In this document: positions 9,434-57,872 of the stretch, one piece after another
Layout: each line of letters begins with the position of its first letter
How positions within the stretch are numbered: the first letter of the stretch is position 1
Source: Balamuthia mandrillaris
Taxonomy: Eukaryota
DNA length: 64,000 bases
Direction of reading: 5' to 3'
Assembly: GCA_031835245.2 (NCBI GenBank)
Contig: JAVKOQ020000113.1
Coordinates: 1-64,000, forward strand
The notes under the pieces: model-generated
Databases searched by the model: none
Seen by the model: only the letters and a program-made list of their open reading frames with translations
Told to the model about the DNA's origin: nothing
Made by a program: the position numbers and the translations under genes

Positions 9434-9477
<44 letters not shown>

Positions 9478-11748: not shown

Positions 11749-11856
11749 TGGTTTTCCAAACAAAAAAAAAACCCGCCACTTGTAAGGAATGAGAGACTAA
11801 CAGTTGGAACGAAGCGAAGCTGTGTGCTCGGTGGTTCGTTCCGGCCAAGAAGAAAA

Positions 11857-14800
11857 ATGGAACAGCTGCGGAAGGAGCTCAAGGCTTGGGAGCGGGCGGT
11901 TCAGGATGAGAAAGGTCACAGGCCCACCAAAACGGACATTAACAGCCAACCCGAGATAGGTTCGTAACGTGCCTATTTTTCTCCCCTGCCAGCTCGTTTG
12001 CTGATGAGCAGGTTTCGCCTCCTCTTCTCATCAGCAAAGAAATTCCAGCTCTACCGCCGACTGAAGCATGAGGAGGAACAAAGAGAGAACCAACCACCTT
12101 CTCGCTTAAGTGTTATTGCTATGGACCCTCCTAACAAGTGCGAGACCACCTACAGCATATGGAAGCCTCCGACAGGAGGCACACGCCTCTTGCGACAGAA
12201 CTCTGCTCGCTCGTTTTCCAGTAATTCAAAGAGTGGGCAGGTTCGCCGACACACACAGAAAGCGGAAGAGATCGCAAGCGCACCGCTTGCTCCTACACTG
12301 GAGCCGCTTTCGTTGGTCGCCATATCGTCTCCTGACCTGCAGCAAGCAGAAGAAGAGCCAAGCACGGAGCAAGGCAAACCCATTTGCATTGACGCCATAT
12401 TTGACGTGGTTACCGCAACCACGACGAAACGTGTGGCCACTTCCAAAAAGAGAGCAGCACGCAGTCTGAAGAGCTTTATCTCTCCTCCTTTTGCTGCCTC
12501 CTCTGCTCTATCTTCATCATCGTCTTACATTTCGGCAGACTGGTCCTCCAATGTTTCTGCGTTTGATGCTTCTGCTTCTGCTTCTGCTTCTTCTTCTTCT
12601 TCTTCTTCTTCTTCTTCTCACAAGCGAAAGAGAGCAATTGAAGCGGAACAGACAGGCGGCGAGGAGCAGCGAAACACAGAAACAAAGGACTCGCAGCAGA
12701 TGGCAGCAACTCCACCTAGAGCATCTCCACTTCTGAAGCGACAAAGGCCAAATGGCACCTCCCCAATGGCCTCGTCTAGGCTAACCTCGCTCCTGAGAGA
12801 AGAGGAGGAAATGGTACAAGAAGAGGCAAAAGAATCAGAAGATGATAAGCCGTTGTATAGAAGAAAAACTCGACGGAACAAAAGAACGGCAATAAGTTAC
12901 CGAAAGTGGAAACGAAAACGACATGTTTTGAGGTCTTATCTCTTTCTCACTCACTCACATACATACATACACACTCTCTCTTTTTCTAATGTTCCTGGGA
13001 TTGCTAATATTAACACAACAGCCATCGCAAGTCAAGTCGGCAAAAACAGAAAGCAAAGCAAGAACACGACAAAATCGCCACAAAGAATGAAGAGGAAGAA
13101 GATGTGGATGAAGCGGAATGGATGGAGTTGGCGAGTGCTGCAATTGCAGAGAATGTGTTTCGCGGTGCTAGCAACACTGCACCCGAAGCAGAGCAAAACT
13201 TAACATCGCCTAGAATTAGAACAAATCCTGGTAGTCGAGACATTGAGGCTTGTCTTTCAACTGATTCTTTGCGTGCATTGTTACAAAGTCACTTTGGCTT
13301 TACTTCTTTTCGGCATGGTATTGTTGCTCTCGATTCTACGCGATTTGTACATGCTAAATCCACACATAGGGCAGGAAGAGGCGATACGACGATGTGTAAA
13401 GGGCTTCTCAACGGTACCTATTGTCATTTGCTTTTTCAATTTATAACACGTTAAGTTTGGGGTTTTGTACGCTGGTAAAAGCTGGTGGTGACGCCTACCG
13501 GAAGCGGGAAGTCGCTCATTTTCCAATGTACTGCTATTCTGTTCAAGCAAATTTATGGTCCATCGTTAGTTCTAGTTATAGTGCCGCTGCTATCTTTGAT
13601 GTAATGCTCTCTCACCACACTCTGAATGTTGCTTCTTACCTTCAACTCGGATAATAGTCAAGACTTGTTGAAAAACTTACCTCCTTCATTACGAGGTGGA
13701 ACGCTCAATAGCCAGCAATCTGAGGAACAAAAGGCAGAGGTAATGAAAATGTTACGAGCCGGAGAGATAGACGTGTTGTTTATCTCTCCAGAGCGACTGC
13801 TGAGCAGTTCATTCATCAATGCATGTCCCTACTTTCCTCCCATTCGATTGGCCGCCATCGACGAGAGTCATTGGTAGGCTATTGTCATTCATCCAGTCAA
13901 GCCAAATGTTTCAACTAACAAACAACCCACAAAAAAAAAGCGTTACAGAGATATCTCACAACTTTAGACCATCCTACTTGCGGTTGAAGCCTGTGCTGCG
14001 CAACCTATTGAACGTACCGAGTATTCTTGCTCTTACCGGTACATTCACCTTATTTTGTTCCTTTTCGAACATCTAAAAGCTTGCTAACTTTTCTTGAATA
14101 CTGAAGCGACGGCCAACAGAAGCACACAAGAAGCCATCTTGAAAGCACTAACAATACCTAATGATAGCAATGATGGCCATTCCACAGGACTGATACTGGC
14201 ACCTTCTCCTCTATGCAACAATCTCCGTTGCACTGCGTCAAAAGATATTGAACGGCTCTCTGCTCTTGTGTCATTACTTCAGAGCCCACGCTTTTCATCC
14301 GCTACCAGCATCATTGTGTATTGTCCCACACAGAAACAGACCGACCAAGTGGCTACCTATCTATCGTATGTTGCCCACTTCTGTTTTTGTCATGTTATCT
14401 CGTTTTTTGTTTGTTTTTGTCTTTATTCTTCTTGTTATGGCGGTGTTTGCTTTGCTCATCAGTTGCTGTTACCTGACAGCTCACATGGACTGATTGCAGC
14501 ATCATACCACGCTGGAAAGTCAACAGGTCAGTTTGTATTTTATTCCTCATGGCTTCCGTTTCTTACTCTTATTTCTTTTCGCAACTTTGCAGCTGAGCGT
14601 TCGCGCCTGCAATCTCGCTTCCTTAACAATAAGCTTAAGATAATGGTGGCCACAGTGGCATTTGGAATGGGCATAAACAAGCCTGATGTAGACGGTACGT
14701 TTAAAACAAACAAATATTTGCATTCTCTGAGGGTTGTCTGACCTTATAACTTGTTTTTTTCAGCGGTGATTCACTTTGGGCTGCCTGCTAGTTTGGAGCA

Positions 14801-30365: not shown

Positions 30366-31676
30366 TCACGCTGAGTCAAAGCACAGCAAGCCTGACCGTA
30401 CTCGGAAGGAGTTGCTTGAGGGGGACTGTGAAAACGGAGAAGATGGCGCTGCTTTAGGCAAACTGATCCAAGCTTTAAAACGGCAGTGGTTGCGCTGTTC
30501 AACGTCACTGGTGGGTTCATCCTCCTGGCTTTGCTGAGAAGAGGTAGCAGTCTTTTTGAGTGAAAAGGAATCTTCCTTGCGTAGTGTGACTCTGTACTTG
30601 ACAAGGTTGGCCCAAGCGTTGCCCATATACTCTGCATGAAGGGGGATTGGGAGGGAGGAGGAGATTGAGGAGGAGTGATGGCAGAAAGGCCTATGTGTTT
30701 GCAGTTGTTGCGGCGAATGTTGATAAGATTCAGCAGAGTTGTTGGTTGGAGCAGAGCCAAAGCTAGAACGTGTTTTGGAGTAGAGGGCAGCTTTCGTGGC
30801 CACCAATATGAGGTTGTAGGTCAGCACATAATGCCTCAGCAGGTTGACCACTTGTCCGTGTTGTCGTTGCTTTTTATCCGTATATTTGTCCAAGTCGTGG
30901 AAGGCCGATATGCTGTCCACTACCAACAGCCTTATTCTATTTTGGTCGCTCTTGTTGAGGTCGCCGCTACCACTGCCACCATCAGTCCCAGCAGCAGAGT
31001 CAGAGCCACCCATCCTTTCTTTGTGCTTCTGTCGTTGCGTTTGCTGTTGCTGTTGCTGTTGCAGCGAAGAACGAGTGGGTTGGGAATAGCCTCCAGCCGC
31101 AAGTAAGGGCTCCAAGTTTCGAAGTGTAGCAAAGAAGTGCAGCGTGTTGAAGCAACGAACTATGTGCAGCCGCTGTAGGCTGCTTCCAATGATTTGCTGT
31201 AGGTTTGGTTGCTCAAGTAGATCAGGCCTATTTTGTTGTTGAAGAATGATGGTGAGACGGCTTTCCAGCATCGTCACCAACTTTAACAGGTTGAACTTAT
31301 GCCGGTTGTCAAACATGAGCACTCCCGCTTCTTCACCAGCCAGCAGCACGCCGTCCCACTCTTTTGGAAGCACTGCGTTGACTATCATCTGTAAGAGGAA
31401 GGTCGACTTGCAGGTACCCTCGCCGCCGTATACCTCCACTACATCGCCCGGTCGCAGCAGTCCTTCTCCGTCTGGTGCTTGTGGCTGACCCGAATTCCCC
31501 CTCCAACCCTTGTTGTTGTTGTCAAAGCCCTGCTGCTGTTGATCTAAGAGGCAGATCCCGGTGGTGAACGGAGGTTGTCTGCCTCGCATGAATAGCTCAG
31601 CTGCGTTCTCACTTGATTGCAGTAGCGAAGAGAAATTGAGGCAAGGCTGCCGCTGCTGCTGCTGCCGCACCTTCAT
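30366..31676 (-). CDS. XRCC2: RAD51 paralogue XRCC2-like DNA repair protein, apparently intronless
   Basis: LRPGDVVEVYGGEGTCKSTFL (Walker A variant), LPKEWDGVLLAGEEAGVLMFD, LLVVDSISAF (Walker B), YMGNAWANLVKYRVTL. Confidence 0.8.
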   Translation of the reverse strand: MKVRQQQQRQPCLNFSSLLQSSENAAELFMRGRQPPFTTGICLLDQQQQGFDNNNKGWRGNSGQPQAPDGEGLLRPGDVVEVYGGEGTCKSTFLLQMIVNAVLPKEWDGVLLAGEEAGVLMFDNRHKFNLLKLVTMLESRLTIILQQQNRPDLLEQPNLQQIIGSSLQRLHIVRCFNTLHFFATLRNLEPLLAAGGYSQPTRSSLQQQQQQQTQRQKHKERMGGSDSAAGTDGGSGSGDLNKSDQNRIRLLVVDSISAFHDLDKYTDKKQRQHGQVVNLLRHYVLTYNLILVATKAALYSKTRSSFGSAPTNNSAESYQHSPQQLQTHRPFCHHSSSISSSLPIPLHAEYMGNAWANLVKYRVTLRKEDSFSLKKTATSSQQSQEDEPTSDVEQRNHCRFKAWISLPKAAPSSPFSQSPSSNSFRVRSGLLCFDSA

Positions 31677-31681
31677 ACTTG

Positions 31682-31712
<31 letters not shown>

Positions 31713-31962
31713 TCCCACCTTTTTTGTTTTTTGCTGTTGCCCACCATTTTTTGGTTTTCTTGGAAAAAAATTATCCACCAAAAATAAAAAAAAGAGAACA
31801 GCGTGAGGAGCAGGCAAGCTGCTGTTTACACGACAAATACAAGAGGAGGGGGGGAAGGAGGGAGGGAGGGGTTGGGGTGGGACCAAAGCAGACGATGATT
31901 TACTTGATTTTTCTTCTCTGTAAAAAAAAAAAAAAAGACAAAGCGCCCACAACATGTGGCAT

Positions 31963-32907
31963 TTAAAGACGGGCAGCATGTGCGGGACAGGAACCGGAGG
32001 AGGAAGGGCGGGTGATGGTGCCCTTGATGAGGCCTTGCGGCTCGGAAACGGGGGTCAGGATTTCATTGCTCCACTCGTGCTGCAAGCCAAAGCGGGTGAG
32101 GTCCACCGTCCAGTTGTGGATGTTGGGCAAGGTGAAGGAAATGGACTGCACGTGCACAAAGTCCTTCAAGACTGCGTCCCCAATGGCGTACACGGTCTCT
32201 TGCACGGAGCGGCTGTATCGCTCGGCAAAGAGACGGCAGGTGTTGCGAACCACTCCATTCCATACGGCAGTAAAGTCTATTTGGTGGGGAGGGGCGTTGT
32301 AGGTCCACGTGGCCTCCACCTGGGTGCGGAGCAGGCGGTCTTTGACCTCAGGCAAGGTGGTGTAGCGGTCCTTGTGGAAGCCAACGAAGCCAGAGCCGCT
32401 CGTCTTGAGGAGCTCCAGGTTCCTGAGGCCAGAGACCACCTGGATGGGGCGAGGGCCAGCGTCGAGGCCAGCAGCGCCCTTGCTGCTGGAGATCAGAGCG
32501 GTGCGCACCTCCCTACGAGGGGCAAAGGAGTGGGAGTGGGGCTGTCCAGCCACCACCAGCCGCTCCCACAGCTGCTCCTCTATGTAGGCCTCTACGGTGT
32601 GTATGTGGGAGTACTCCTCCAAAAAGTGTTGCACCAGGCGCACTCCGAACGTCTCTATGTGGGTGATGGGGTCTTTCTTGGCCAGAACGTAGATGGTGTT
32701 CTTGACCGTGTCTGTGGGTACCACAGCCGAGTTATCACCGGTGAGGTAAGAGGCGTCCAGACCCTCTCCTTGCAGCAGGACGCGCACGTTGAGGTCCCTG
32801 ACCTGCTCCTCTCCGCCACCCTCCTTCCTCGTCACCTTCAACAAGCGCACATGTCGCTTGCCGTACTCGTTACCCGATAAATAAGCTGCGGTACTGCTGC
32901 TTGCCAT
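31963..32907 (-). CDS. UOX: Uricase (urate oxidase), intronless, with PTS1 (-ARL)
   Basis: YGKRHVRLLKV, SYLTGDNSAVVPTDTVKNTIY, LKTSGSGFVGFHKDRYTTLPEVKDR, YSRSVQET, LPNIH, PQGLIKG. The 945-bp ORF starts at ATG 32907. Confidence 0.95.
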   Translation of the reverse strand: MASSSTAAYLSGNEYGKRHVRLLKVTRKEGGGEEQVRDLNVRVLLQGEGLDASYLTGDNSAVVPTDTVKNTIYVLAKKDPITHIETFGVRLVQHFLEEYSHIHTVEAYIEEQLWERLVVAGQPHSHSFAPRREVRTALISSSKGAAGLDAGPRPIQVVSGLRNLELLKTSGSGFVGFHKDRYTTLPEVKDRLLRTQVEATWTYNAPPHQIDFTAVWNGVVRNTCRLFAERYSRSVQETVYAIGDAVLKDFVHVQSISFTLPNIHNWTVDLTRFGLQHEWSNEILTPVSEPQGLIKGTITRPSSSGSCPAHAARL

Positions 32908-33067: not shown

Positions 33068-33085
33068 TTAGGGTTAGGGTTAGGG
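33068..33085 (+). repeat. (TTAGGG)3 interstitial telomere-like repeat / telo-box
   Basis: Three exact TTAGGG units followed by degenerate units. Confidence 0.8.
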
Positions 33086-33169
33086 CCACCAGGGGTTACT
33101 AGGGCTAGCCTTTTGTGCCTTCCTTCCACCTCGTGTCGACGGAAGTTTTAAGGAGAACCCTCTTTAGGC

Positions 33170-33360
33170 TAAGGCGGCGCCAAGATCAAGCCGATCCATG
33201 GGACAACGAAAATAAAGCAAAATTAGTAAAAGATTAGTAAAACAAAAAAACAGACACAAAAAATAACCCACCTCCGGCGTGCCTAATCACGGCTTGTCTT
33301 ACGACTCGCTATAAGCAACGGTGCCGGCACCAAAGCAACCTTACCGCCTACCGCCCCCTC
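33170..33360 (-). ncRNA. Candidate Fanzor omegaRNA scaffold (guide predicted from flanking DNA)
   Basis: Lies between the Fanzor stop and the element end, where TnpB/Fanzor omegaRNAs are usually found. Contains the GGTGCCGGCACC palindrome (33320-33331), a GUC-GUAA-GAC tetraloop hairpin (33296-33305) and a possible GGCGG/CCGCC long-range pairing with the terminus. Boundaries are inferred. Confidence 0.45.
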
Positions 33361-35079
33361 ACAGAGGAGGAGGAGGAGGTGGTAAGTGCTTGTAAAGTGA
33401 AAAAGCGGATCAAGATGTTTCGGGCGGCGTTGGCATCTCGATCGGCCTGGTAGCCACACTCGGGTTGGGCACCGAAAGGTCTTGTTTCCCCCCAACTGGT
33501 GGTGGACTTGGCCGCACTTGCCGCAGGTCTTGGAGGTGTATTCCTCATCGCAGAGGCAGACCGTACAGGACGGAAATTGCTGGGCCTTGTTGAGGAGCCT
33601 CTGCCTGAAGCGATAGTGGGACCAGGTGAGCATGGCTCTGGCCGTTCGCGAGCCAATGCGGCGGTGGCCTCGCCGCACCATCTGCTGGCTCCTGAACTCT
33701 GGCAGAAGGATGAGGGAGAAGTTCCTGACCAACCAAGACACGAGCTTCTTGTGGAGGTCATCCACCAGGTTGCGGATCCTCTGGCGAAGCCGAGCAGCGG
33801 CCCTTCGGAGACGGCGCCGTTGCCTGTGGTTGCCCTTGGTGCCCTTACTCTGCATGCGATCCAGGCGGTGGCACAGCTTGCCTATCTCGTTGATGTCCGC
33901 TTTGCCCCACTCGGTGACCTCCCCGCAGCCGTTGTAGGTGGTCATGAATGTGCGCACTCCTGGATCCAAGGCGATGATGCCTGCCTCTCTCCTTCGGTGC
34001 TCACGGGCTTGGCTCTCGCCCATGAGCTTCAAAGGCTGAGGCACGCAGAGGTAGTAATGGCCCAGTCGAGTGTCCTTCACCAGACGAACGGCATAGAGCA
34101 CCTCTGACGGAACTTTGTAGTTCTTGTCCCTCGCTTTGATTCGCGCCTCCCCGAAGAAGAGTTGGCGGATAGAGCTGTTGTGGTTCCACTCCCTGGCTTG
34201 GATGCTGAGAGACTGGCTCTTGTCCTTCCTACCACGGAACTTCATCTGGAATCCAGTCGTGCCTCTGCCCGCCGCCAAGCTGCTTTTCACGCCGTTGAAG
34301 AAATCATCGACAGCGTCACTCCGAATGAATCGAGGAGTTTCCAACACCCACGCAAGGCTCTTGTCCTCTCCCGTGAAATTGCTGTTATTTAGGAATTTCT
34401 TCCTGACTTGTTCCTTCATCTCATCACGAGGCATTCCTTGATGTTCACGATGGAACTCCACGGCCTTGTTGTAGGTCCATCGTACTGTGCCGAACCACTT
34501 GGCCAACGTCTTCTTTTGTTCCGGGCGCGGATAAAGGCGGATCTTCTCCACTCGCCCCACTACCGGTTTCTCCTCTCCGTTCTTGCCTTTTTTGGTAAGC
34601 TGTACGGCTGGGCGAGACGGAACGAGTCCCTCGATGAGGCCTAACAAGCCTTTCTGGTTTTTCTCCTCTTCTTCCTTCTCCTTCTCCTCTTCCTCTTCCT
34701 CCTTCTTCTCCTTCTCCTTCTTCTCCTCCTCCTCCTCCAACACCTTTTCTCCGTTAGGAATGTGCTTGCAGGCGGTGAACCATCCTGAACCACAGGCAAA
34801 GGGTTCTTCCAAGCACAAGGCTTCCGGGCGTATTAATCTTCTCCCGATTAAGCTGGAAAACTGGTTCCAAAAGGGCTGGGCGGGTGCAGCCTGCGGCCTT
34901 CCACGCTTCTGTGCCCTTGCCTGAGGTGCCGCTGGGGCGTTTTCCGCTCTTCTTTTCCGAGTAGCAGTGGAAGTAGCAGAAGTAGTGGCGCGACCCCCTT
35001 CCTTGTGGACCCGACCGAAGTGGATGGCCAACCCGTGAGAGGTAGCAAACTTTTTTCCGCACTGTGGGCAACTTGCCAT
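33348..35079 (-). CDS. Fanzor2 (IS607 TnpB-derived) RNA-guided endonuclease with N-terminal C2H2 zinc finger; frameshift near 33465
   Basis: KIRLYPRPEQKKTLAKWFGTVRWTYN (OrfB HTH), RuvC-I IIALDPGVRTF, LVDDLHKKL, MLTWSHYRFRQRL, shifted RuvC-II and Zn ribbon EEYTSKTCGKCG. RuvC-III ECGYQADRDANAARNI lies in the adjacent frame and ends at TAG 33348-33350. Confidence 0.92.
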
Positions 35080-35558
35080 TCAGGCCAGCTTCCAGCAGCG
35101 TTGTGGAAGAGGCGCACAGAGGTTCGTGATGCTGTTCTTTTTTAAACAATTTTGTTTCCATCATCAAAAAATGTAGTGAGCGAGCAGAGAAAAAAGAACG
35201 CTACCTTTTCAATCGGAGCAGTGCCCCTGCTTGCGGCTGAACCGCTTCGGTTTCCACCTCTGCCTCCTTCCGCTGGTTTCCTCCTTGTGTAGTAGAAGCG
35301 TAGCAATGAGAAATACGGTGGTGCGTGGAGCTTCGTGGATGCGTGTGTCTGTGTGTTTACTTTTTAAAAGAAAGAAATGAAAAGAAAAGAAGAGAAGAGA
35401 AGAAAAGAAAACGAGTAGCAGAAAAGTGTCAAGGCGACTGACGAGTACCAAAAGTTTATTGGCGGCAGCAGCAGCATGAGCATCCATTCCGTACACCCCC
35501 CACCCCACACCCCAACCCTACCACTTTGCCTTCAGAGACGTGGGAGAAGGAAGGGTTG

Positions 35559-35583
35559 TTTTGGCGGGAAACATGCTCATTGG
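35559..35583 (-). promoter_or_regulatory. E2F-like site (TTTCCCGCCAAAA) and CCAAT box inside the transposon, upstream of Fanzor
   Basis: TTTTGGCGGGAAA at 35559-35571 and ATTGG at 35579-35583, just inside the 5' TIR. Confidence 0.5.
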
Positions 35584-35762
35584 CCCAAAAGACTAATGTC
35601 GTGATTTCTATTTTCGTTGTCCTTAGATCTTATGATCTTTGCGCCGCCTTACTCTTTAGGCTGTGCCGCCAACAATTAAAAAGCACTAGCTAGCTGCGGG
35701 CGACGAGCAGCTTTCCTTCGCCACTCATTTCGTCAGCAGTCAGGATAAGGCCGATCTCTGCC

Positions 35763-38700
35763 ATGTGGTCTCACAGCATCCGCAACGGGAACTGGCGTTC
35801 CTTGCCCAGTTTGTCAAGTCCGCGTTCTTTTTTGGGGAGTTGCACCAGCGGGCTGCTGGGGCGGAGCTGCGGCCCAAACCTCGGCCCAAGCCTTCCTGCG
35901 GAAACTCGCCGACATGCTTCCTCATGCACACCATTTTCCGTCTCGCGGGGTGCACCGCCCTCCGCAACACCAACAACAAAGCCAGTGGGAGGACTGCCCA
36001 CACTGGGCCGCAACGGCCGGTTTGATGGTCTCCACGCTCTTCGCACGTTCAGTACTCACTACAAAACGTGCGGTAGGCTAGACCCCATGAAGCGGACCGG
36101 CTGGCAGACAGGTGGCAACCTTCGCTTTGTTCGTTTTTTCTGCACCAGTGGCACCGGCGGAATTAGCCGCCTCCGCAACGTGGCCATCATCGCTCACGTC
36201 GATCACGGAAAGGTACGCACTCACGGACAGCACTCCCATCTGTTGCAACACTTGCTCATCACCACCCCTCCTACCAAACAACAAACTACCACATAGACAA
36301 GCTTGGTTGACACCTTATTGAAACACAGTGGTAGTAACTTTGCTGATGGAGAACGTGTCATGGTTAGTTTGCCAACCCCTCCTTATTCGTGAGCGAGGGC
36401 GATGCTAAGTTTTGTCTTGGCTGCTCTTGAAATTCTAACAGGATTCCAACGAGCTGGAGAAAGAGCGAGGAATCACTATCCTATCCAAACAAACTAGCGT
36501 TTATTACAAAGACTACAAAATCAACATTGTTGATACCCCCGGTGAGTTCTTGTTCTTTCTGCTTTCTTTGTTGTTGTCTTATCTTCTTCTTGTTCTTCTT
36601 CTTCTTGTTCTTCTTCTTGTTCTTCTTCGTTCTTCTTCGTTCTTCGTTCTTCGTTCTTCGTTCTTCGTTCTTCGTTCTTCGTTCTTCGTTCTTCGTTCTT
36701 CGTTCTTCGTTCTTCGTTCTTGTTCTTGTTCTTGTTCTTGTTCTTGTTCTTGTTCTTGTTCTTGTTCTTGTTCTTGTTCTTGTTCTTCTTGTCCGTATTT
36801 TGTTAAACCATCGTCTCCAGCGGAGTATACTAACCTCTAAGGTGTCACCGCTTTAGGGCACGGCGATTTTGGAGGGGAGGTAGAACGGGTGCTCGGAATG
36901 GTAGATGGTGTACTTCTGTTGGTAGACGCTTCCGAGGTTTGCATTCACGTCAATGCTCTTCATGAAGACTGCGACTAACCAGTATCACAGGGACCCATGA
37001 CCCAAACTAAATACGTGCTTTCAAAGGCTCTACAAAGGAACCTGCGACCCATTGTGGTTCTCAACAAAATGGACCGTGAGACTGCTCGACCAGAGGACGT
37101 AGAAACAGAAGTACGTTCTTGCCTCTCTCCAGACAGCACTGCATTTTTTTTGATAATCCACAACGTTTGAGTGTTGTGATGCTACTCTGACATGTTGCGG
37201 TTGCCATTAGATTTTTGATCTTTTTGTGAACTTGAGTGCATCTGATGAACAGTTGAGCTATCCTACTTTATATGCCTCGGCCAGAGAGAGTAAGGATACA
37301 CCTCCTACCAGTCGTCAATCATTATTAACACATTTTTCCCCTCTCCCTTGCCCTCCATCCCTGAAGGCTGGGCTGTGGCGAACAAGGAAGACGAAAGAGT
37401 AGATATGACACCTGTCTTTGAGGCGATCATAAACAACGGTACGTCTGTGAGCTCAATCTTAATTTATCATGTCCATCACTGATCGGTTATTGTTTATGAT
37501 GATTGCAGTCCCGCCGCCAAATGTTGATCCTAGTAAACCGTTTTCAATGCTGATTACCACTTTGGAGTATGATCCTCACTTAGGCAGACTATTAATTGGT
37601 CGCGTGGAAGGCGGGCGAGTTGTGGCTGGCTCACCCTTGCGCTCCCTTTCCTTGGAAGGAAAGGAGCTGGAATCAGGTATGCCTCTTCTTTTGTTGTTTT
37701 CCTCTATGTCTTTTCTAATTTTGCTTGCCAACCCTCACAATCGGAAAACAAACATGAAACAGGAAAGGCGTTGAAGGTGTTGGGTAGGCAGGGCCTGCAG
37801 CGCAAACCACTAGACGTTGGCGAATGCGGAGATATCATTGCTGTCGCAGGTTTTGCAAATACTTCGGTGACAGACACTCTTTGTGACCCTTCTGTCACAG
37901 AGCCTATCAAAGCAGTTCCGATTGATCCTCCTGTTCTCTCCATGGTATTTGGAGTCAACGACTCCCCTATGGCTGGCAAAGATGGAACCAAAGTAACATC
38001 GACAGCCCTAAAAGCTCGCATCCTCCGAGAGCTTGAAAGCAATGTGACCATTGAAATGGAGGAATTGCCAGAGGAAGGCAAGATGGAAATCAAAGGAAGA
38101 GGAGAATTGCAGCTTGCGATTCTCATCGAGAACCTTAGGAGAGAAGGCTTTGAGCTCTCAGTCTCTCCGCCCAAAGTACTTTTCCAGTACGATGAAGATG
38201 GCACCAAGCTTGAACCACAGGAAGAACTTACAATTGATGTGGATGGTGAATTCAGTGGACCAATTATTGAAAAACTTTGTATGTACACCCCCAATTGTAG
38301 TTCTCTTGGTGCCTTTTGCTTACCTCTGTTTGTTCCTCTTAGCTAATCGCAAGGCTGAACTGTTGGAGATGAAAAATGAAGGAAAGAAGGCCCGCATGAC
38401 ATTTTTGTGTCCCTCCAGAGCTCTCATTGGCTTTAGGGTAAGGCATCAACTGCTGGAGTTTACTTGTAGCTGAACTCACCACGATGTCCTGGAACTACCA
38501 ACAGGCAGAGATGACCAGACTATGCAGAGGTTCCCTGGTCTTACACCATACATTTCATTCGTGGGTTCCTTACAAAGGGCCAATTGATAACATGCGAAAG
38601 GGGGCTCTTGTTTCCAATGCGACAGGCGTGGCAACAACCTACGCTCTTAACCTTCTTGAGCCTCGCGGAACTCTTTTTATCCATCCTCAAACCCAAGTTT

Positions 38701-39124
38701 ATATGGGTGAGTGCTAACAACTTCATCTCAATATCTGTTACTGATGCAGACAAATACCTTCTTCCAGGTATGATTGTGGGAGAAAGTGCCAAAAAGGGGG
38801 ACCTCGATGTAAATCCCGTCAAAGCGAAGCAACTCTCTAACGTGCGATCGGTGCAGAAAGAGGAGAATGTGCGCCTAACTCCTCCTCGCATTCTCAGCTT
38901 AGAGGAAGCCATAACCTATGTGCAAGGTACTTGCCCAGTGACATCGGCATGCCGTTTTTTTATTTTGCCAAAATGGTCTATTTTTCCCTCCCTAACCACT
39001 TCAATCCACATTTCCAGAGGACGAACTTGTGGAAATAACGCCAAAGCACGTAAGAATGAGGAAAGAAGTCTTGGATACTTCTCTCAGAGAACAGGCTGCC
39101 CGAAGGAAGAAAAAAGCGAACTGA
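35763..39124 (+). CDS. typA: TypA/BipA translational GTPase with long N-terminal presequence (probably mitochondrial); multi-exon
   Basis: [105 protein letters not shown]. Stop at 39124. Confidence 0.92.
36582..36790. repeat. Compound (TTCTTCG)n/(TTCTTG)n microsatellite in a typA intron
   Basis: Visible directly in the sequence. Confidence 0.95.
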
Positions 39125-39446
39125 AGAGGGTGCATCCAAGACCTCCACGCTTTGCCTACCCGAATAAACCACTGCCACAAAACAAGAATTACATCACTTT
39201 GCCCAGCCATCTCTCTGCAGGGGTGATAGATTAGGGGCTGTTGATCGTTTGCTTGTTGTTGTTTCGCTTTGTTGTAGTTCGGGAGTTTTTGGACTCGAAT
39301 TGCAAATAACTAAAAAATCCGGTTGGTGGGCTGGTTGACCCGCAAGCCGTACCAGTCTTTATGAACTTACCCAAATTGAGGTGTGCTTTATAGCGCAGAG
39401 AAGAGGAAGGCCAAAAACGCAAAAGCTGTCAAGCAAGAGGAGGAGA

Positions 39447-42400
39447 ATGAGCGGTAGCTCGGTGCGAAATGGCAGTGGTGGTAGTTGCTGCAGGGAGAGC
39501 TTCTGCGCCAAAACTACGACTACCACCGTAAACCAACTACTATGGCGGGCGGTGAGGCGGTTCGGCGAACGCCCGGCGTTGGCTTGGGAACAACAAGGCA
39601 AGTCCTACAGAATGACCTATTCGGAGTTAGGGGACGAGGTGCTGCGACTAGCCAAACAGCTGCAGAGACAGGGCGTTACAAGGAACAGTCGGGTGGCCAT
39701 CCTAGCAGAACGGCGCGCCGAACTTATTTTGGCAGAAGCTGCTGTTATATGCGCAGGAGGAGCCTTTTGTTGTTTAGACCCGGAAGCTCCCCCCCAACGC
39801 AACCAATTGATTCTTGCAGACCTTCAACCCTCCGTCTTCCTCTGTCAGCAGCATCTGCTGAACAAACTTAGACCTGGTGCAGCCCAGTGGAAGACCGTGG
39901 TCCTTCCCTTAGAGACCTTCTGTTGCAAACAAACGAGCAGCCAAAGAACCGAGGTAACCATTCACAACAACAACAACAACAACAACAACGTAGATAAGGC
40001 GCCACTGGAAGAAGAGAAAGAAGAAGACATTCAAGTAAACAACCGGCCGGAGGACTTGGCTTATCTGGTGTATACCTCCGGGACGACCGGCAAACCCAAA
40101 GGAGTTATGGTAACGCATCAGAATCTAGTCAACTTTGTGGAGAGCAGCATGAGCAGGAGGGGAAGGACGTGCCATCATCGGAAGCAACTCCATCGGACTA
40201 TCGCTAGGCGAAAGGAGGAAGAGGCAGATAAGCACGAAGGAGAGCAGGAGGAGCACCACTGGTACTATGAAGAGGGGGATCGTACGCTGCCCACTGCAGC
40301 AGTGCAATTTGACATTCATGTGATGGAAGTGTGGTGTGCGCTTTCAGCTGGCGCTTCCTTATTTCTTATAGCCAAGTGGGAGGTGCTGGACAGCAGCTTT
40401 CTTGCCCAATATCTCTACAAGCACAACATCAACAAAATGTTTATGGCAACGGGCTTGTTTCATCGGTACGCCAACACGAGGCCAGATATTCTCGGTCAAC
40501 TGGAGGCATTGTGTGTAGGAGGGGACTCCCTTTCGGCCTCATTGGCTATGGCTGTAGCCAACAGCTATCCCGGATTGCGGCTGCTAAATGCCTACGGCCC
40601 TTCGGAGACCACGCTTTGGGCGTCCTACTTTCGCGTGAGGCCTGGACGTCACTATGAGAGGATTCCAATTGGCTTCCCTTTGCACAACTACGTGATCTAC
40701 GTCTCGATGAAGAGATGCGGCCCCTCTCCTCGCATCACCAATACCAGGAGAAGGAGAAAGAAGAAGAGAGACAAAAACAGCGGCAACAGGTTGGCGAGAT
40801 TGTGATAGGCGGACTTGGTGTGGCGACCGGCTATTTCAACCTTCCAGAGCTGACTGCCACCAAGTTCCTTCCGGATCCGTTTGTGGCAACAGCAGGCCGT
40901 GAACCACAACGTATGTATCGCACCGGTGACCTTGGCTACTGGTTGCCAGATGGATGTCTAGCCTTCGCAGGAAGGGCTGATGATCAGTTAAAAATCAGGG
41001 GCAACCGTATCGAGCTCGGCGAGATCGAAACTCAACTCAATCAGCATGCCGGTGTGGCGGCGGCCTGCGTCTGCGTACAGCAAACGATAACACTTGAGGC
41101 TACAGCAACCAGTACAACCCACGGCAACGAAGGTGAAGAGAAACGCTTGATAGCCTGTGTGGTGCCACAGAAGAGCAATCATCCACGAGAACAACAGGTT
41201 TCGAAGGAGGAGCTGTTGCGCTACATGAAAGAAAGACTTCCAGAGTATATGCTGCCGAAGCACATCTTTTTTGCAGAGCATTTGCCTACCAATTTAAACG
41301 GTAAAGTGGACAAAAACCAGGTCCTCAGCATGTGGGAGGAAAACCAGGAAGAGGAGGATCTCCGAACGAGCTGCACACCGTTGCCTCTGGATGCCGGCGT
41401 AGAGACAAGATGTGACCAGTCATCTGTGGGGTGCATGTTGCGAGACTTGTGGCAAAGCTGCCTCCATGACACAGCCGGTACGATCGGCATGGATGCTAAC
41501 TTCTTCCAAATGGGCGGAGACTCGTTTGCATGCATGGCACTTGCCGCCAAAGCCAACGAAAAGGGGCTTCCCCTTACCCCACTCCTCATCACTGAGCATC
41601 CAACACTAAGAGCTCAGCTGCAGTACTTGCTTTCCTTGCCTGCTCAAGTATCAACGACTGGTACGACGCGCGAAGACTACTTGCTGCAAGTTCGACTCAT
41701 GCCTGCACAACAACGACTGGCAGACATAGTGTTGAAATCTCACGATAGTGTGGAATACCTTGTACCGGCAACTCCTTCCCAACGAGCTCTACTTATGATG
41801 TCACTACGGCAGCCAAGCAGCGGCCTCATGCAGCTTGTTGCCTCCACTGTTTCTTCTTCTTCTTCTTCTTCTTCGTCTGGAGTAGTATTCGATATTCATG
41901 CCTTCCACAGGGCCTGGGAGATAACCTGCGCCTCCCATCCTGCCCTCCGTGCAAGCTTTCACTGGACTGGCGACATGGCAACCGTTCTCCAAGCCGTTCA
42001 CAACAAAGTGAAACTTCCACGTTTTCCTGTGTTTGAGGTTGGCTCTGAAGAGAAACTCGAAGAGCGGGTGCAACGCTATCTCGCTGTGGATAGGAAACGA
42101 GGAATGGACTTCAAGGTAGCTCCATTGCTCCGCATGGCTATATTCAAGAGAGGCAACGATTCCCAAGGCCCTCGTTGCACATTCGTTTGGACCTACCACC
42201 ACGTTTCACTTGATGGCACATCAACTTCCATCGTCTTCCAAGACTTTGTTTCGTTGTACACAACCTTGGTCAGATCATCACCACCATCAACATCACCTTC
42301 AAATGACCCGAAACGATTGGAAACGCAAACCTCCCTCATCGAAGAGACTGCCCTCATTTCCACCAGCAGCTTACAAGGCCAACAATTCAGCGTGGAACAG

Positions 42401-45400
42401 GAAACAAGAGCAGAGCAGTTTTGGAAGGAGAGAATGGCGGGTGCCCCGACTGAACCATTGATACCGCTAGACTGTACCAGCAGCGCCCCTCCAACAGCGG
42501 AGCAGCTGGTCATCCATCACCCACTCCGACCAGAACTGGTGATACGATTGAAGCAGTGGTGCAACAGGAATGCAATGACTCTTGCTACTGTAACCTTTGG
42601 TGCTTGGCTGTTGCTTGGCTTCGTAGAAGATTGCCTTAGTGGAAAGAGGCGCAAGGCTCTGGGATCTCTCATCAACTTTGCAGGACGGCCTTCAGAAAGT
42701 CTGTCGGCCGCCGCACCCAAAGCCGTGAGCATGCTAGTTAACCCTCTCCCTGTTCATTTATCGGTGGACGAGGAGGATCTCCTTCTTCGTTGGCTGAGGC
42801 AGCTCCGTACCGCTGTGGTGCAGGCCCAGGAGTATGAGTTGTTTTCTCTCGCTAAGGCACTCTCCTTCGCCAACAAGCAAACCTTAGGTCTCGTGCGACA
42901 TTGCTTCAATTGGGACGGCTCACCATTGGAGCACCGAACGGTGGAGTGCTTTTCTACTCCTTCTTCTTCTACTGCTGCCTCTTGCGCTTTCCGAGTCGAA
43001 CGTATAGAAGAGCGTACAGGATTCGGGCTGGCCATGAATGTAGCGGACCATGGAGGCTCCACCCTCACTGTCACAATGGAGTGGAATAACGGAATGTACC
43101 GTCAGCAGACCATTCATAAGCAGCTAGTACGGTTTGAGTGGTTGCTGGAAGGTGTTGTTGCTGTAGACAAAGATGATGATCCTTCATTGAGACATCTCAT
43201 CGAAAACATAAGTGCTGTATCTGCACAGTTACCCATTCGGCTTCCGCTTGGGCTTACTCCTTCCGAGCTAGCTGTACTTCGTTACCGGCGAGGGCCAAAG
43301 AGGGCGAGGGTTGCTTCATATTTCGAAGAGAGTATGTGGAAGCTTCAAGTTGTCAAAGTCAAGGGTACTTTGAAGCCTTCTGCTCTGCATCGGTGTCTAC
43401 ACGAGCTGGCTCGTCGCCATCCAATACTTCGTACTGTCTTCTACCATTGCGAAGACAACGAAGAAGAGCTGCTGCGTCGCACCATTCCTCAGGAAGACAT
43501 CGATGTATCGTTTCAAGCGCAAGATCTTTCCTATCTGAGCAAGGGACAACAAGCAGCTAAATTTGAAGAGGCGCGGGCCTCGGCCAAACAGCTCCTTCGG
43601 CTTGGGCAAGGCGACAACCAGAACATGTTCGGCATCATTGCTTTGCGTCTTGGCAAGTTACGGCATTGCTTGCTTCTCTGTTATCATGAGCTTCTCCTCG
43701 ACCAAAACTCTACAATGCTCTTCTGGCAACAGCTTTCTTTGTTGCTGAACGGCAAAGATGGCAACCTCCGAGGCAAACCTAAAACAGATGCCTCTTCCTC
43801 TTCTTTTTTCTCCATTCATCAAGAAAGCGGGATATCAGCCGTTTTACTGTTGCCATTATTCAACAGAACACGTTTAAGAGGAAATTATGAGAAGATATGC
43901 AATCCGCAAACGAGTTTTAGTAAGCCTCCACTCCCTGCGCAACTACCTTATAGTGTACTACCTTCTTCATTATCAGAGAGTGAAGCAGCAGTGACGAGAC
44001 GGCCTACTGCTACTGTTGTGCGCACTCTTCTTGTCCCCAATATAAATGGCGAAGAGGGAGCACAACGGCTGTTGCTGCAACAACCGGTGGTTGAAGAGAA
44101 GCAGCTGTTAGCGGCTCTGCTCATACTCCTCCATAGATACAACACGGAAACCGAATGTGTGGCAGCCACTCTTGTCCCTTCCGAGCTCGTGCCTCGTGGG
44201 ACTGATAGCCATACTGCAGTTGTTTTGGGATGCTTTGTTGCTCCTCGTATCCTAGCAGCAAATATTCCATCAGCCAACTGCCGTGCGGAGGACGTTATAC
44301 GACAGGTGGAGAGGGCTCTTTTGAATTCTGGTGCTGACGATGACGAAGACAACTGCTACGATGATCAATGGCAGCAGCACTCATGCGACTCTTCATCCGG
44401 GATTCAACATCGCCATGGCAATAACGTGGAGTTGCTATTCCACCCATACGTTGAGTTCCCGAGGGAAGAATGCACCCCTCTACGCCTTTCACTCCTTCCT
44501 TCCCGTTCCATGACGCTTCTCTCTGGATCCACTGAGGTTGCCTTCCATATCTCAGAAGACAGACCCGGCGGCTCTCCTGTGGGAACGCTGGAGCTTGCTC
44601 TACACTACGATACGCGTCTGTTTTCCAGCAGAGCTGCTGCATTCATGACCGCCCACTACGCCAATGTTCTGAGCAGCATGTTGGCTGACCCAGCAGTACT
44701 GCTAGGCGACATACCGCTGCTCTCCGCTGAGGAAAATCAACTCTTGGATAGCTTTAGTACCAGCAATGAGAACCACAAGATGCAAGACGCTGCAGCTGCC
44801 GTGCTGGTGCAGCACCTCTTTGAAAAAAACGTCGCTTCTCTACCCGACAGAACCGCAGCATACGTTGCAGAAGGAGATATCTCAGTCTCATACGACCAAC
44901 TCAACTACAAAGCAGAAGCGATCAAGGAGATGCTATGGGATGTGTGTGGAAGGCAGAAGCGAGTGGTTGCACTTTTTTTCAGGCGGTCTGTTGGTTTGTT
45001 GGCCTCACAGCTGGCTGTACTCAAGGCTGGCTTTGTGGTTCTTACTCTGGACCCCGAAGCACCGCTTCAACGCAATTCTGGCATTCTAGAAGACGCCAAC
45101 TGCCAAGTAATCCTCCACATGGATGAGCTGAAGGACAGTTTGCCATCGCCTACTGTCAACGGTAGCTATGATCCTCGTCTTGTGCAGCTGTGCATTGATT
45201 GCCTGGGGGAACCTGTTGTAGCCGAGTCTTCTGGCAAAGGGCGGCATCTCTGTAAACCTACTGCTGCTGCCGCTCTCCATCATGACGTCGCCATGCTGGT
45301 ATTCACCTCTGGAACCACGGGGCGACCAAAAGGCATTCAGGTCACTCATCAAAACATGGTGAGCATGTTTAGCAACAAGTTTCAATTCCATGTGGAGGAA

Positions 45401-48400
45401 GGGGATAGGGTGCTGGCCACCACTGCTGTGCAGTTTGACATGAGCGTGCTGGAGGGGCTGGGCACTCTATGCGGAGGAGGCAGCGTCGTTTTGGTGGACA
45501 AAGAGTCTATTCTGGATTCTCGCTCTATGGCGAAGGTTATCAAGCAGCACAAGATAACCAAGATGGTTTTTGTCAGTGCACTGTTCAACCACCATGCACG
45601 AGAGAGACCCGAAATGTTTGCAGGACTGAAGCAAATCATACTTGGCGGAGACGAGGTGCTGCCCAAGCCTGTACTGCGGGTGCTGGAGACCAACCCAAGC
45701 CTGATCATCACTCCTGGTTATGGACCCACCGAGTGCACAATGGTCTCTACCTATTACTCGATGGACCCTGCCTTGTTGAGCAGCATGCAGACTTCAGTGC
45801 CTATTGGCAGACCCATTGACAACGCGGTGGCCTACGTAGTAGACAGCTATTTCAACCGCGTGCCCGTTGGTGTTTGCGGGGAATTGCTCATAGGCGGCGG
45901 AGGTGTTACTAAAGGCTACCTTGGCAATGAGGAGCTGACTGTCCGCAAGTTCGTTCCCAACCCATTTGCCTCCTCGGCTGTTGGAGGAGCAACGGGAGGG
46001 AGTGCCATGGCTCCGGTGTTGTACCGCACTGGGGACAAGGTGAAATGGCTGTCAGATGGCAATATCCTCTTTGTTGGCAGAAATGATGGGCAACTCAAGA
46101 TAAGAGGAAACCGTGTGGAATTGGGAGAGATAGTCCGCGCTCTGCAAGACCACCCACTTGTTGGGGACGTTGCTGTGGTAGCCTGCGACGGGGAAGGTCC
46201 TGCACCTACAGCAGAAAAGCATTTGGTAGCCTTTATAGTCAGGAAAGGAAAGATTGCCACGGGCAGCGGTATCACTGCTCCGCTAGAAGCTGCCATGCAA
46301 GAAGACTTCAGGACGTTTTTACGAGGACGCCTTCCCAGCTACATGACGCCACGCAATTTCTTCTCCATCGACCGTATCCCGATGACCCTTAACCAGAAGG
46401 TGGATGCTGCCAAGCTGAGAGATATTGCTCACATCAAGCTGCGTGAGGAGATGGAGGAAAACGATATCGGATTGCTTCATCCGCACGAATTAGGGAATGG
46501 TGGTGAAGCCTGCAAGAATTCCTGCGTGAATGGATCAAAAGATAGGATCACCTCTATCTCGGGAGGTTGTCCGGAGCACCACATCGCGGTGCGAAAGAAG
46601 CTGCACTCACTGTGGAAAGGGGTCATTGGCCATCCAGTCCGTCCGGAGGACAGATTTTTTGAGGTTGGCGGTGAGTCCCTCATGGTATCAAGGCTCTGTC
46701 AACAGATCGCCAACGCTTTCGGGCTTGATGAAGACGAGGACCTCATGGGTGTATTCTTTGAGCGGCCGACTATTGCCGGCATGGAGAAGTACTTATTACA
46801 ACGTTTTGAAGCTATAACAGCGACGGGAGAAACGCATCAGCTATTGCAACCATCCAACGCTGGTAGTATGACACAAACAATCAGCAAAATGCAACCTGAG
46901 TCGACGCCTACAGCCAGCTTTCCACCAGCGACTCACTCTGCTAATAACAAGGAAGGAAAGGAGAAAAAAGAAAAGAATCAAGCAATGGGCAATGTAGAAT
47001 CCACGCACATAGCAATAGTGGGTATGGGATTTAGAGGTCCCAAGGCTAGCAATTACCAAGAGTTGTGGGAGAACCTCAAGAATGGGCAGGATTGCATTAC
47101 TAGGTTTACCACAGCTGAACTGAAGGGGCACGTCTCAGATGAGGCCCTCTCTCATCCCTCCTATATAAAGGCAAGGGGGTGGGTCGAGGATGCTCTTCAG
47201 TTTGACCCACAGTTCTTCAACATTGCGGAGGAGGAAGCTTGCGCCATGAGTCCCCAACACTGGATGTTTTTGGAAATGGCTGCGACCGCCCTGAACGACG
47301 CTGGCTACCCCAATCCATCCCTTCTCAGGACGGAGAGGAAGCTTACTGGAGTATTTGTTGGAGCTGCGGACAGTCACAGTGATGACAGTGGGTATAGCAA
47401 CGGTGAGGACGAAAAAGAGGAGGAAGAGGAGGGAACTGGTACCTGCCGGAAGAACGAGACCAAGACGAAGAGGAGGAGGACTCCAGCAGAGGAAACCAAG
47501 CGAAGCATGCTACGCTCTAACCACTTTATAGCCTCCCGTGTGGCATACCACCTGGACTTGGATGGACCAGCAGTAAGCGTGCAGGCGGCCTGTGCCTCAG
47601 CTTTGGTGGCTGTGCATCAGGCTTGTTCCGCTCTGAACAACGGTGAATGTGACATAGCAGTAGCTGGCGGAGTGGAAGCTGCCCACAAGGAAAAGGAGGG
47701 CTACTTTGTGGCAACTACGAGCCTTTCCAAGGATGGGGTGTGCCGGCCCTTTGACACCCAGGCAGGCGGCTGTGTACCTGGTAATGGCTGCGGTGCTGTG
47801 GTACTGCGACGACTGCAGGATGCTCTTGCTGATGAGAATCACATCTATGCTGTGATAAGGGGCTCTGCCACCAAGAATGATGGGGCAGCAGGAAAGATGG
47901 GCTATTATTGTCCCGGCGTGCAGGGCGTCGCCTCCACTATTGAACACGCCATTCGTGTTGCTGGCCTGCGCCCTCAAGACATTTCTTTTGTGGAGACAAA
48001 TGGTACAGCTGTACCTTTAAGTGATTCCATTGAGATTCAAGCCCTTCGCAAAGTATTTGTTGAGAGAGCTGCTACCAAGGACGGACAGACTAAATACCAG
48101 ATGGAGCCCCTTCATCAGCACCGTTCTCAATATTGTGATGGAGAAGACAGCAGCAGGCAGCATCCTCATGGCCCCCATATCGCCTTGGGAGCTATCAAAT
48201 CCAACATTGGTCATCTTGGAGCAGCTTCAGGTATTGCTGCCCTCATCAAAACCGTTTTATGCCTCTACCATGATACAATTGTCCCAACTGTGAACCATTC
48301 TTCTTCTCATGCCAATCTCCGCTTGGAGAGCTCTCCATTCTTTGTGCCTACAAAGTGCGAGGCCTGGCCTCTCACTACTGTTCATTCTCACTTGGGTAAG

Positions 48401-48694
48401 GCAGCTGGAGACGAAACAAGAACACTTTTTGCAGGGGTAACTGCGATTGGTAGTGGAGGCACTAATGTCCATGTTGTACTGCAAAATGCCCATCCTTTCC
48501 TACCAAGAAGAGGAGGAGTTTCTCTGAGTGCTGACTCCTCCTTACAAGAAAGGAAACTAAACATCCCTCCCCTTTGCTTCAACAGAGTGTCAATGTCCTC
48601 TTTATTGTGTAAACATCAGATTGCTGTTAAGACATTAGACATATCTAGCATATCACAAGAGGAGGAGATTGCAGCCTTTGAACTTTATGAGTAA
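39447..48694 (+). CDS. Intronless hybrid NRPS-PKS (A-T-C-C*-A-T-KS); single-base frameshift at about 40703
   Basis: A1: YTSGTTGKPKG, NAYGPSETT, YRTGDL. T1: FFQMGGDS. C1: YHHVSLDG. C2 degenerate: YHELLLDQ. A2: FTSGTTGRPKG, YGPTECT, YRTGDK. T2: FFEVGGES. KS: IAIVGMG, GPAVSVQAACAS, ETNGT, KSNIGHL. Confidence 0.9.
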
Positions 48695-56516: not shown

Positions 56517-57872
56517 ATGCGGAAAAATAGGACTCTGCCACGCAAGAGCACTGAATTGATTGACAGTCAGGAGAGGGAACAGGTCCTACGTCGATGGGTG
56601 GATCTGGCCATGAAGGAACGTCTTAGACTGGGGACCCTAAACGGTAATCGTTCGTGGAAGCCCGCTTTGCAAGCTGTGCAAAAAGAGACAAAGATCCCCG
56701 AGTGTTTTGTCAAAGGGGACAAGCTAAATCAGTTTCTGGAGGAAGCGTTCAAGTTTGCGGTGGAAAAGTATGGGCACCTGAACACTACCACAGTCAAGAT
56801 TCCTTCTCCCAGGGTGAACCAAAAGGAGGAGGACGACAGAGGGGCAGAGGATCAGTGTAACTCGGTAGCGGATTCGCCCCGCCGAGAGGAAGGGACAAGT
56901 GTTGTGCCCAAGGGGAAGATTGATTCGGACTCAGTCAGTGCAGCCGGCGTTAAGGAGCGAACCAATAGTCAAGTGGCGCTGCTGTTTGATTGTATTAGCC
57001 GTGTTTCTCACGAGTGTGGTAAGCTCTCCGAGGCAGGCGTACTCTCACTCGCAGTGATTGTACGATTCAGGGACCTGATTGAATCCCTCGACAAGGAGAT
57101 CAATAATCTTATGGTGGAAAAAGGAAGTGCAAATAGTACCAAAGGCGGCCTTACTCTGGGTTCCCAACGGTCTTACGTGGAGGTGGTCGGATCAGCTCCG
57201 CGGTGTGATATGATTACTGCGGAAAGGAATTTCCCTCCAACGGCAACTACGGTCAGCGCGCCAAGCTTGGAATACTGGAAGGAAGAAATGGCAAAGGAAC
57301 AAGGGATATGTTGGCAGGATAACTCCAACATATACAGGAGGCCGTGGACCAAAGATACAGTAACCGACCCGAACTATTGGTCTACAGTAAAACCAAAGTA
57401 TGGCTTTGCCAGTCCCTACTCCAAGGTAGGGGCGGTGGAGGGCAGATCGATTGTGGTGAGCGGTAAGGACCTTAAGAAGGAAAAGGTAAGTGAGAGGATC
57501 TTCGAGCTGGGGCTCAAGCACGTCGGAGTGTGGAAAGTAGGAGAGAAGAATGGCACGCAGCATTGGGGAGTTACTTTGGAGCCGGCCCAGGCTGCCGAAG
57601 ACATTATTGCGGAAAGAGCCAGGCTGTATGCTTTTACCCGCTGGTGGGTGGGCAAAGCCCGAATTGAAGAAGCCAAGAATGAAGGTAAACCGCTGTGGAA
57701 GCCTAAAGAGCAAAGAAAGATGGAGAAGAAGAAGGAAAAGGAGTAGAATGTTGGAACAGTGGCCTTGGACAGCTCTTTGGAACTCTCAGGCATCGCGCTG
57801 GCTGAGGAGGAGTATCATGGTGCTGCCAACTGGTCTGACATTGTGGAGGAGGAAGGAGAGGAGACCCAATGA
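56517..57872 (+). pseudogene. LINE ORF1 (one premature TAG at 57744-57746; natural stop probably TGA 57870-57872)
   Basis: 409-aa ORF. The same frame stays open after the TAG (..NWSDIVEEEGEETQ*) up to a TGA that overlaps the ORF2 ATG. Confidence 0.65.

Follow-up and report, generated by a model that had tools for sequence, protein, structure and literature searches.

Canonical Fanzor2 nucleases, such as ApmFz2 of mimivirus (9B0L) and those of ACa-1 and ACa-2 of Acanthamoeba, are carried by IS607EU elements (PMC3627910). A second setting was reported by Yoon et al. in 2023, who described Fanzor2 in cut-and-paste elements of Chloropicon and molluscs that have terminal inverted repeats (TIRs) and a target-site duplication (TSD), and named them Fanzor2* (PMC10711439); Fanzor2 borne by TIR elements with a TSD is also treated in a review (PMC13565253). 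Fanzor1, for its part, was found by Bao and Jurka in 2013 in MuDR-like elements with 9-bp TSDs (PMC3627910). Here we analyse an element of this general kind in a 64,000-nucleotide stretch of Balamuthia mandrillaris DNA, termed the window (assembly GCA_031835245.2, contig JAVKOQ020000113.1, positions 1 to 64,000). It is one copy of a multi-copy family, bounded by TIRs and a TSD of 9 or 10 bp, and its predicted protein is a Fanzor2 of IS607 descent.

With the Fanzor2* elements of Chloropicon primus and molluscs the Balamuthia element shares a DPG motif and a shifted glutamate, (degenerate) TIRs, a TSD and a setting outside IS607 (PMC10711439). It differs in its amoebozoan host, which does not appear in the searchable text or supplements of that paper, and possibly in the length of its TSD, 9-10 bp. 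With the IS607EU elements it has in common the nuclease family, the N-terminal extension and the fold, and its relatives have the pseudoknot-type RNA layout. Unlike them, it carries TIRs and a TSD but no serine recombinase, its protein has an added N-terminal C2H2-like finger, and the 3' end of its RNA is predicted to have changed.

The MuDR-like elements ROr-4, PBl-3 as well as MCi-4 are likewise non-autonomous TIR elements with a 9-bp TSD, a Fanzor cargo and no transposase (PMC3627910); their nuclease, however, is a Fanzor1 without pseudoknot and their TIRs match confirmed MuDR elements, whereas the Balamuthia element carries Fanzor2 and no partner was found for it. SpuFz1 resides in Spu-1, an element of ~2-2.5 kb with one open reading frame (ORF), TIRs and gene-less 'ghost' derivatives, and its omegaRNA spans the 3' TIR (Saito et al. 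2023, PMC10432273), much as the predicted Balamuthia scaffold appears to do. Its nuclease is nevertheless a Fanzor1, the flanking motif is conserved and the target-adjacent motif (TAM) is CATA, in contrast to the Fanzor2 and long duplication described here. The TvMULE elements of protists, which are Mutator-like elements (MULEs) with short TIRs, resemble the Balamuthia element in having TSDs of 9-11 bp and TIRs of a few tens of bases (PMC6446971), but no MULE transposase is tied to the Balamuthia TIRs.

Boundaries, protein and descent of the element

The TIR-bounded element spans 33170-35651 (2,482 bp) and separates the divergent uricase and TypA genes, which lie ~360 bp apart once the element is subtracted (Table 1). 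A first-pass annotation of the window had placed it between these two genes, which are both confirmed, and had described imperfect TIRs of about 45 bp, a perfect 10-bp TSD and a Fanzor gene as the only long ORF. The TIRs align with 82% identity over 45 bp (blastn E 2.6e-4), their local alignment score being 63 against a maximum of 40 among 2000 shuffles. Both TIR core motifs occur at two sites only within the window, namely the two element ends, and the Fanzor frame of 598 aa is indeed the sole long ORF inside the element. The 10-mer CTCTTTAGGC adjoins each TIR. In run X8, a 272-nt contig consists of the left flank, one copy of CTCTTTAGGC and the right flank, at a depth of 14.9, equal to that of the variant left-flank contig. 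Because this empty allele holds a single copy of the repeat, the insertion is real and polymorphic.

The duplication therefore stands, while its length is 9 or 10 bp rather than exactly the 10 bp annotated. The base adjoining the TIR is C on both sides, so the locus alone fits a TSD of 8, 9 or 10 bp. The C on the right varies, since 14 RNA reads depart from the reference past 35651, and this makes 8 bp unlikely; a C precedes the left TIR in two unbiased cases, and 9 bp is thus possible. A pile-up of contig ends at 33169 was considered as proof that the C belongs to the element and was dropped, as contigs were apparently listed only with ~30 matching bases, which favours flanks that match one base more.

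The protein is assigned to Fanzor2 on its sequence and its modelled fold. It has HTH_OrfB_IS605 (aa 179-209), OrfB_IS605 and TNB domains, a RuvC-I DPG motif at aa 372 and a shifted catalytic glutamate, E513, six residues ahead of the first zinc-finger cysteine; DPG and a glutamate six residues before the zinc finger are hallmarks of Fanzor2 (PMC10711439). The top PDB sequence match is the mimivirus Fanzor2 9b0l (E 5e-20), and no Fanzor1 is found among the 19 PDB sequence matches at E<=1. A fold search with the predicted model (predicted local distance difference test, pLDDT, 83) placed 9b0l at rank 1 (E 1e-17, template-modelling score, TM, 0.63) and SpuFz1 at rank 33 (E 3e-5, TM 0.27), so that the model has the compact, TnpB-like fold and is nearer to ApmFz2 than to Fanzor1. 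Fanzor1 is marked by TDG in the WED domain and by enlarged REC domains, and the TDG motif is absent from the window protein translation. At the N-terminus a C2H2-like finger (aa 3-25, a weak Pfam match) is followed by the Fanzor2-type extension. When the N-terminal 112 aa were used as query against proteins of 328-1047 aa, only Balamuthia copies were returned (three matches), and no donor of the zinc finger was found among them.

The first-pass annotation had not noticed a frameshift at 33466/33467, before the third catalytic Asp. It separates the main frame from the RuvC-III Asp and the second zinc-finger pair, which lie in a different frame, and the D-E-D triad is not intact in one frame in this copy. 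Other copies have two extra bases at 33466, as do 9 of the 11 RNA reads there. Sequencing error was set aside as the cause of the 2-base loss; the diverged copy P0125 reads the same, and the loss is likely real. The protein of this copy is predicted to be nuclease-dead, which bears on the activity of the copy and not on its membership of Fanzor2.

The family is represented by 12 annotated B. mandrillaris models of Fanzor, on contigs of 12 differing sizes. Ten models are 92-100% identical to the window protein, one of them identical over 528 aa; P0001 reaches 85%, lowered by a frameshift, and P0021, in two pieces, 78% and 95%. Summed contig depth, which is not a copy number, is 4,500-13,000 over the element in run X1 against 6-51 in the flank bins (last bin 468), and 390-2,100 against 9-45 (last bin 191) in X8. 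These values correspond to rises of at least ~100-fold and of ~10- to 60-fold, respectively, and the depth changes abruptly at the TIRs. The 15 of 45 joints listed include internal deletions, for instance 33226-35544 and 33188-35624, and the 23 of 438 loose ends listed include ends at 35611, found in 5 contigs of X8 and 7 reads of X21; together they indicate that the TIR is attached also to other sequences or interiors. Thus the TIRs recur in other copies, and these do not have differing ends, as judged by read boundaries and not by assembled copies. The annotated claim of a recent insertion fares less evenly, as the empty allele speaks for it, whereas near-full-length family models differ by ~3-7% in protein and this copy is broken.

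The element is covered by RNA reads on both strands. A 55-nt skip at 35120-35176, bounded by GT..AG when read on the plus strand, which is not the strand of the Fanzor gene, is seen in eight X21 RNA reads, six of which have the mate orientation of minus-strand RNA, and in a deep X6 contig; there are none in X1 or X8. Run X6, labelled 'DNA?', looks RNA-like, as it has even cover of the uricase exon, no depth in the promoter and typA start, and spliced joints. In X1, one contig (depth 31.6) joins 35652 to 33169 with 17 letters between, pointing to tandem copies or an excised circle.

Table 1. Coordinates of the element, its predicted parts and the adjoining host genes
Feature	Position	Strand	Remarks
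Left direct repeat (TSD)	33160..33169		Single copy in empty allele; last base possibly the element's, giving a 9-bp TSD
TIR, 3' end of Fanzor gene	33170..33214		Read boundaries at 33169
Predicted omegaRNA scaffold	33178..33395	-	Stems 1 and 3, pseudoknot hairpin and a long closing stem; prediction only, 3' end tentative
Predicted long-range stem	33187..33296	-	33296-33290 with 33193-33187 inside TIR; 7 Watson-Crick pairs
Small hairpin	33320..33331	-	Best match to the hairpin that bears the pseudoknot loop in IS607 Fanzor2 relatives; not strong by itself (0.19 expected by chance)
Fanzor2 C-terminal part, out of frame here	33348..33466	-	Second zinc-finger pair; RuvC-III Asp at 33435-33437
Fanzor2 main frame	33467..35079	-	Finger, N-terminal extension, HTH_OrfB_IS605, DPG, shifted Glu
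GT-AG intron in Fanzor 5' leader	35132..35204	-	One X6 contig, joint 35131-35205 (CT..AC on +)
TIR, 5' end of Fanzor gene	35609..35651		14 RNA reads depart from reference after 35651
Right direct repeat (TSD)	35652..35661		Identical to left copy
Host uricase gene, left neighbour	31963..32907	-	Pfam E 6e-58; gene start at 32907
Host TypA/BipA GTPase gene, right neighbour	35763..39234	+	Has introns; ends approximate

Descent of the nuclease from IS607 elements, as annotated, is borne out by its relatives. Among loci with at least 700 bp upstream, the nuclease has a serine recombinase as neighbour in 51 of 59 from metagenomes, 63 of 75 from viruses and 45 of 67 from prokaryotes, and all 25 of the 25 recombinase ORFs picked were confirmed as Resolvase. 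None is present anywhere in the 64-kb window, in agreement with the annotation, and no tnpA relic was found there in three frames. In a FastTree phylogeny of 179 rows (without loci that had stops or <290 aa, near-duplicates, P0001 and P0021, and with no Fanzor1 among the rows), the window Fanzor nests among recombinase-linked IS607 loci with moderate supports of 81-93. Its nearest relatives with genomic context are IS607 elements, and its identity to the IS607 relatives is 45-52%. A scan of 156 relatives with enough flank, which recovered the window element as positive control, returned no credible pair of TIRs with a TSD; three AT-rich matches, all beside a recombinase, were taken as noise. 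Because the relatives nest as recombinase-linked IS607 loci without such ends, it is likely that capture by a TIR element took place in this amoeba's lineage.

Movement in trans by a DDE transposase is likely. The duplication of 9-10 bp falls in the MULE range, and a Mutator-type enzyme is therefore the most likely mobiliser; MULE TSDs measure 8-11 bp and the TIRs of protist TvMULEs 20-38 bp (PMC6446971). Searches with the ends themselves brought no further member to light, as a gapped TIR pattern had no match in metagenome contigs, and the one viral-contig match of an 18-base TIR pattern was rejected as chance, with no further TIR likeness in the 400 bases inspected. The rival superfamily is hAT, whose terminal motif is (T/C)A(A/G)NG; both element ends begin TAAGG and fit it, a five-base motif being a weak sign. 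The hAT TSD is 8 bp and active-looking hATs are reported from Acanthamoeba (PMC6004678). An 8-bp duplication would need both flanking C residues as element bases, and the 14 RNA reads ending at 35651 argue against this.

Predicted guide RNA and proposed roles of the nuclease

The RNAs of the relatives end in NNRGCG, 120-240 nt past the RuvC-III motif, and this end can pair, by its complementarity, with the loop of a small hairpin that follows stem 1. With the end not looked at first, the complementarity was found at 15 of 34 loci, against 3.1 (maximum 10) with shuffled loops, although related loci are not independent. The pairing agrees with the pseudoknot of ApmFz2 (PMC11832414). A large GCG-ending IS607 group of Fanzor2 type (L002, L003, L010, L016, L018, L025, L027, L047, L051, L053 and others) displays clear compensatory change between RNA end and hairpin loop, 3' of the nuclease gene.

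In the window, profile scans put the best hairpin at 33327 and the best end at 33178, within the 3' TIR; each match is weak alone (0.17-0.19 by chance). The two pair at five of six positions (three Watson-Crick, two G-U), and the combination of loop and end was equalled by 3 of 3184 control windows in a test that was post hoc. Alternative scaffold ends, with lower scores than 33178, lie at 33172-33169 and 33272. The predicted 7-bp long-range stem has a chance of 0.017 in 5000 shuffles and is lost when the other TIR's sequence is swapped in, and among the differences between the 3' TIR and its partner are bases for which pairing within the scaffold is predicted. The TIR-specific closing stem and the match of loop and end inside the TIR favour a scaffold that likely reaches the TIR. 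An Rfam search of the region gave no match above gathering scores, and a plain fold of the 3' region was no more stable than shuffles (z -0.82).

The account that we tentatively prefer, holding it at slightly less than an even chance, is that of a non-autonomous TIR transposon that is moved in trans and uses its IS607-derived Fanzor2 for restorative homing. A resident TIR family would have captured an IS607-type Fanzor2 cassette, with loss of tnpA, and the omegaRNA would have been remodelled to draw on the 3' TIR for its closing stem and pseudoknot. The TSD presumably varies from site to site, which would prevent it from being a constant portion of TAM and scaffold, as it is in Fanzor elements with a short TSD; instead, the 9-10 bases of duplicated target DNA would form the seed of the guide. 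In intact copies the guide RNA would end at the 3' TIR, empty alleles would be cut and the element copied back in. A cut empty homologous allele, or an excision site, would be repaired from the filled allele, while the filled site would be spared, as only 9-10 bases match at its 5' junction. The RNA of the copy in the window could serve protein from intact copies. Fanzor2 guides of 11-12 nt give plateau activity (PMC10432273).

Several observations weigh against restorative homing. The best scaffold end, 33178, lies 8 nt inside the TIR and the model requires the TIR tip; the other TIR equals this one on the end profile (7.2 vs 6.7), and the loop also has a perfect 5-bp partner at 33278-33274, far inside the element (chance 0.05). 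A sequence-only model of the relatives' RNAs (a covariance model without base pairs) found nothing significant in the window. No partner transposase is encoded among the 40 scanned of the 73 window ORFs of at least 150 aa. None of the 12 family models unites all four of the DPG motif, the shifted Glu, RuvC-III and the second zinc-finger pair, which may be due to decay or to assembly errors in homopolymers. Nor is the insertion fixed, as its empty allele is found in one sample, and the filled left junction in X1 has a depth of 9, against 18-41 in the flank. More generally, it has been argued in a review that DDE elements profit little from such nucleases (PMC13565253).

In an alternative account, the Fanzor2 cassette would be cargo of the TIR family, as in Pack-MULEs, and the nuclease of no use to the element. 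The old IS607 end would then persist as a fossil ~100 nt inside the element (33272), and the guide would be fixed or the RNA decaying. The internal loop complement, with five Watson-Crick pairs, has AG after it, a feature shared with relatives L005 and L011, and the lack of a complete model, the many deletion derivatives and the frameshift of this copy are all in keeping with a useless passenger. However, the distance from loop to end would be 50 nt, against ~65-140 in the relatives, and the 33272 end is outside the six best right-end profile matches and has no proper closing stem. The frame kept at 33466 in most RNA reads, and the departure of the 3' TIR from its partner where pairing with the RNA is gained, also speak against this explanation, which we consider rather unlikely.

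A scaffold ending at ~33178 would have another consequence, in that each guide would consist of the last 7-8 TIR bases followed by the TSD and would be aimed at transposon ends. The choice of loop 33327 and end 33178 by the profile scans, with the pairing and control counts given above, speaks for this proposal; the register keeps the invariant pairs read by RuvC in ApmFz2 (PMC11832414), and one pairing base is specific to the 3' TIR. The test was, however, devised after the sequence had been viewed, with neither profile match strong by itself, and as the other TIR scores as well, the end match may have nothing to do with RNA function. Self-cutting is a further risk for a guide that matches its own end, unless the TAM differs, and no precedent was found in the literature examined. 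We hold such targeting, which might for example aid excision or serve in the policing of related TIR elements, to be improbable. If true, it would mean that the pseudoknot was rebuilt 8 nt inside the TIR after capture and that the nuclease was retargeted from empty sites to transposon ends, with a cut 17-19 nt from the TAM landing at the outer TSD edge. A very remote prospect is that the locus is a degenerate IS607EU element served by a serine recombinase in trans, its TIRs and TSD being those of an unrelated host element that had once received it as an insertion. The close relatives are all of IS607 type and both TIRs weakly resemble the IS607 right-end profile. This reading is nonetheless largely refuted, as the high depth spans TIR to TIR and falls at the TIR tips, the empty allele lacks the whole span together with one repeat copy, IS607 leaves no TSD (PMC13565253), no tnpA relic exists in the three frames and no boundary pile-up occurs near 33272 among the loose ends listed.

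Other features of the window

The promoter region that received the insertion carries three telomere-type TTAGGG units at 33068-33085, ~75 bp from the insertion site. At 35682-35684, runs X1, X3 and X8 diverge into different sequence, which suggests that the promoter beside the insertion is polymorphic for further indels. Directly downstream of the uricase gene, a RecA-fold ATPase is encoded at 30366-31979 on the minus strand, with weak AAA_25 and KaiC matches; it is possibly a RAD51 paralogue. Further to the left is a hybrid histidine kinase region (3903-8558, minus strand) with two HATPase and two receiver domains. To the right, a hybrid gene of nonribosomal peptide synthetase and polyketide synthase type (39339-48694, plus strand) encodes AMP-binding, condensation, carrier and ketosynthase domains in one open frame of 2,678 aa. 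It is followed by the remains of a retrotransposon without long terminal repeats (55350-63778), with reverse transcriptase on the plus strand (57839-61174), pieces of RNase H and of endonuclease on the minus strand and a strong GC skew.

Place among Fanzor-bearing elements

The first-pass annotation had proposed an undescribed system, which is not upheld, since Fanzor2* had been reported from an alga and molluscs in 2023 (PMC10711439). The Balamuthia locus likewise has a Fanzor2 in a non-IS607 element with TIRs and a TSD, the boundaries of which are backed by an empty site and multiple copies. It is therefore of the Fanzor2* kind, and as its nearest relatives with context are IS607 elements, its capture was probably independent of the algal and mollusc cases. 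No paper dealing with Balamuthia and Fanzor together was found in a search that did not extend to Repbase or subscription journals, and Balamuthia is absent from the searchable text and supplements of PMC10711439, PMC10530073 and PMC10432273; according to a genome preprint, the transposons of this amoeba still need annotation (10.1101/2025.02.25.640156). It is not claimed to be the first Fanzor2 whose TSD is long. What is new is a probably independent amoebozoan capture with a long TSD, together with a predicted scaffold that appears to run into the 3' TIR and possibly ends ~8 nt inside it.

Fanzor2* elements have been proposed as intermediates on the way from IS607 Fanzor2 to Fanzor1, and in the paper that introduced the name they are listed from the alga and molluscs only. 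With 45-52% identity to its IS607 relatives, the Balamuthia protein has kept a similarity that should suffice to follow how the guide RNA was remodelled. According to the published rule, the 5' TSD is the TAM and the 3' TSD lies within the scaffold (PMC13565253), which cannot easily hold for a duplication of 9-10 bp. The Balamuthia family thus makes it possible to test how a pseudoknot-bearing Fanzor works with a long TSD, and whether a DDE element gains anything from carrying such a nuclease.

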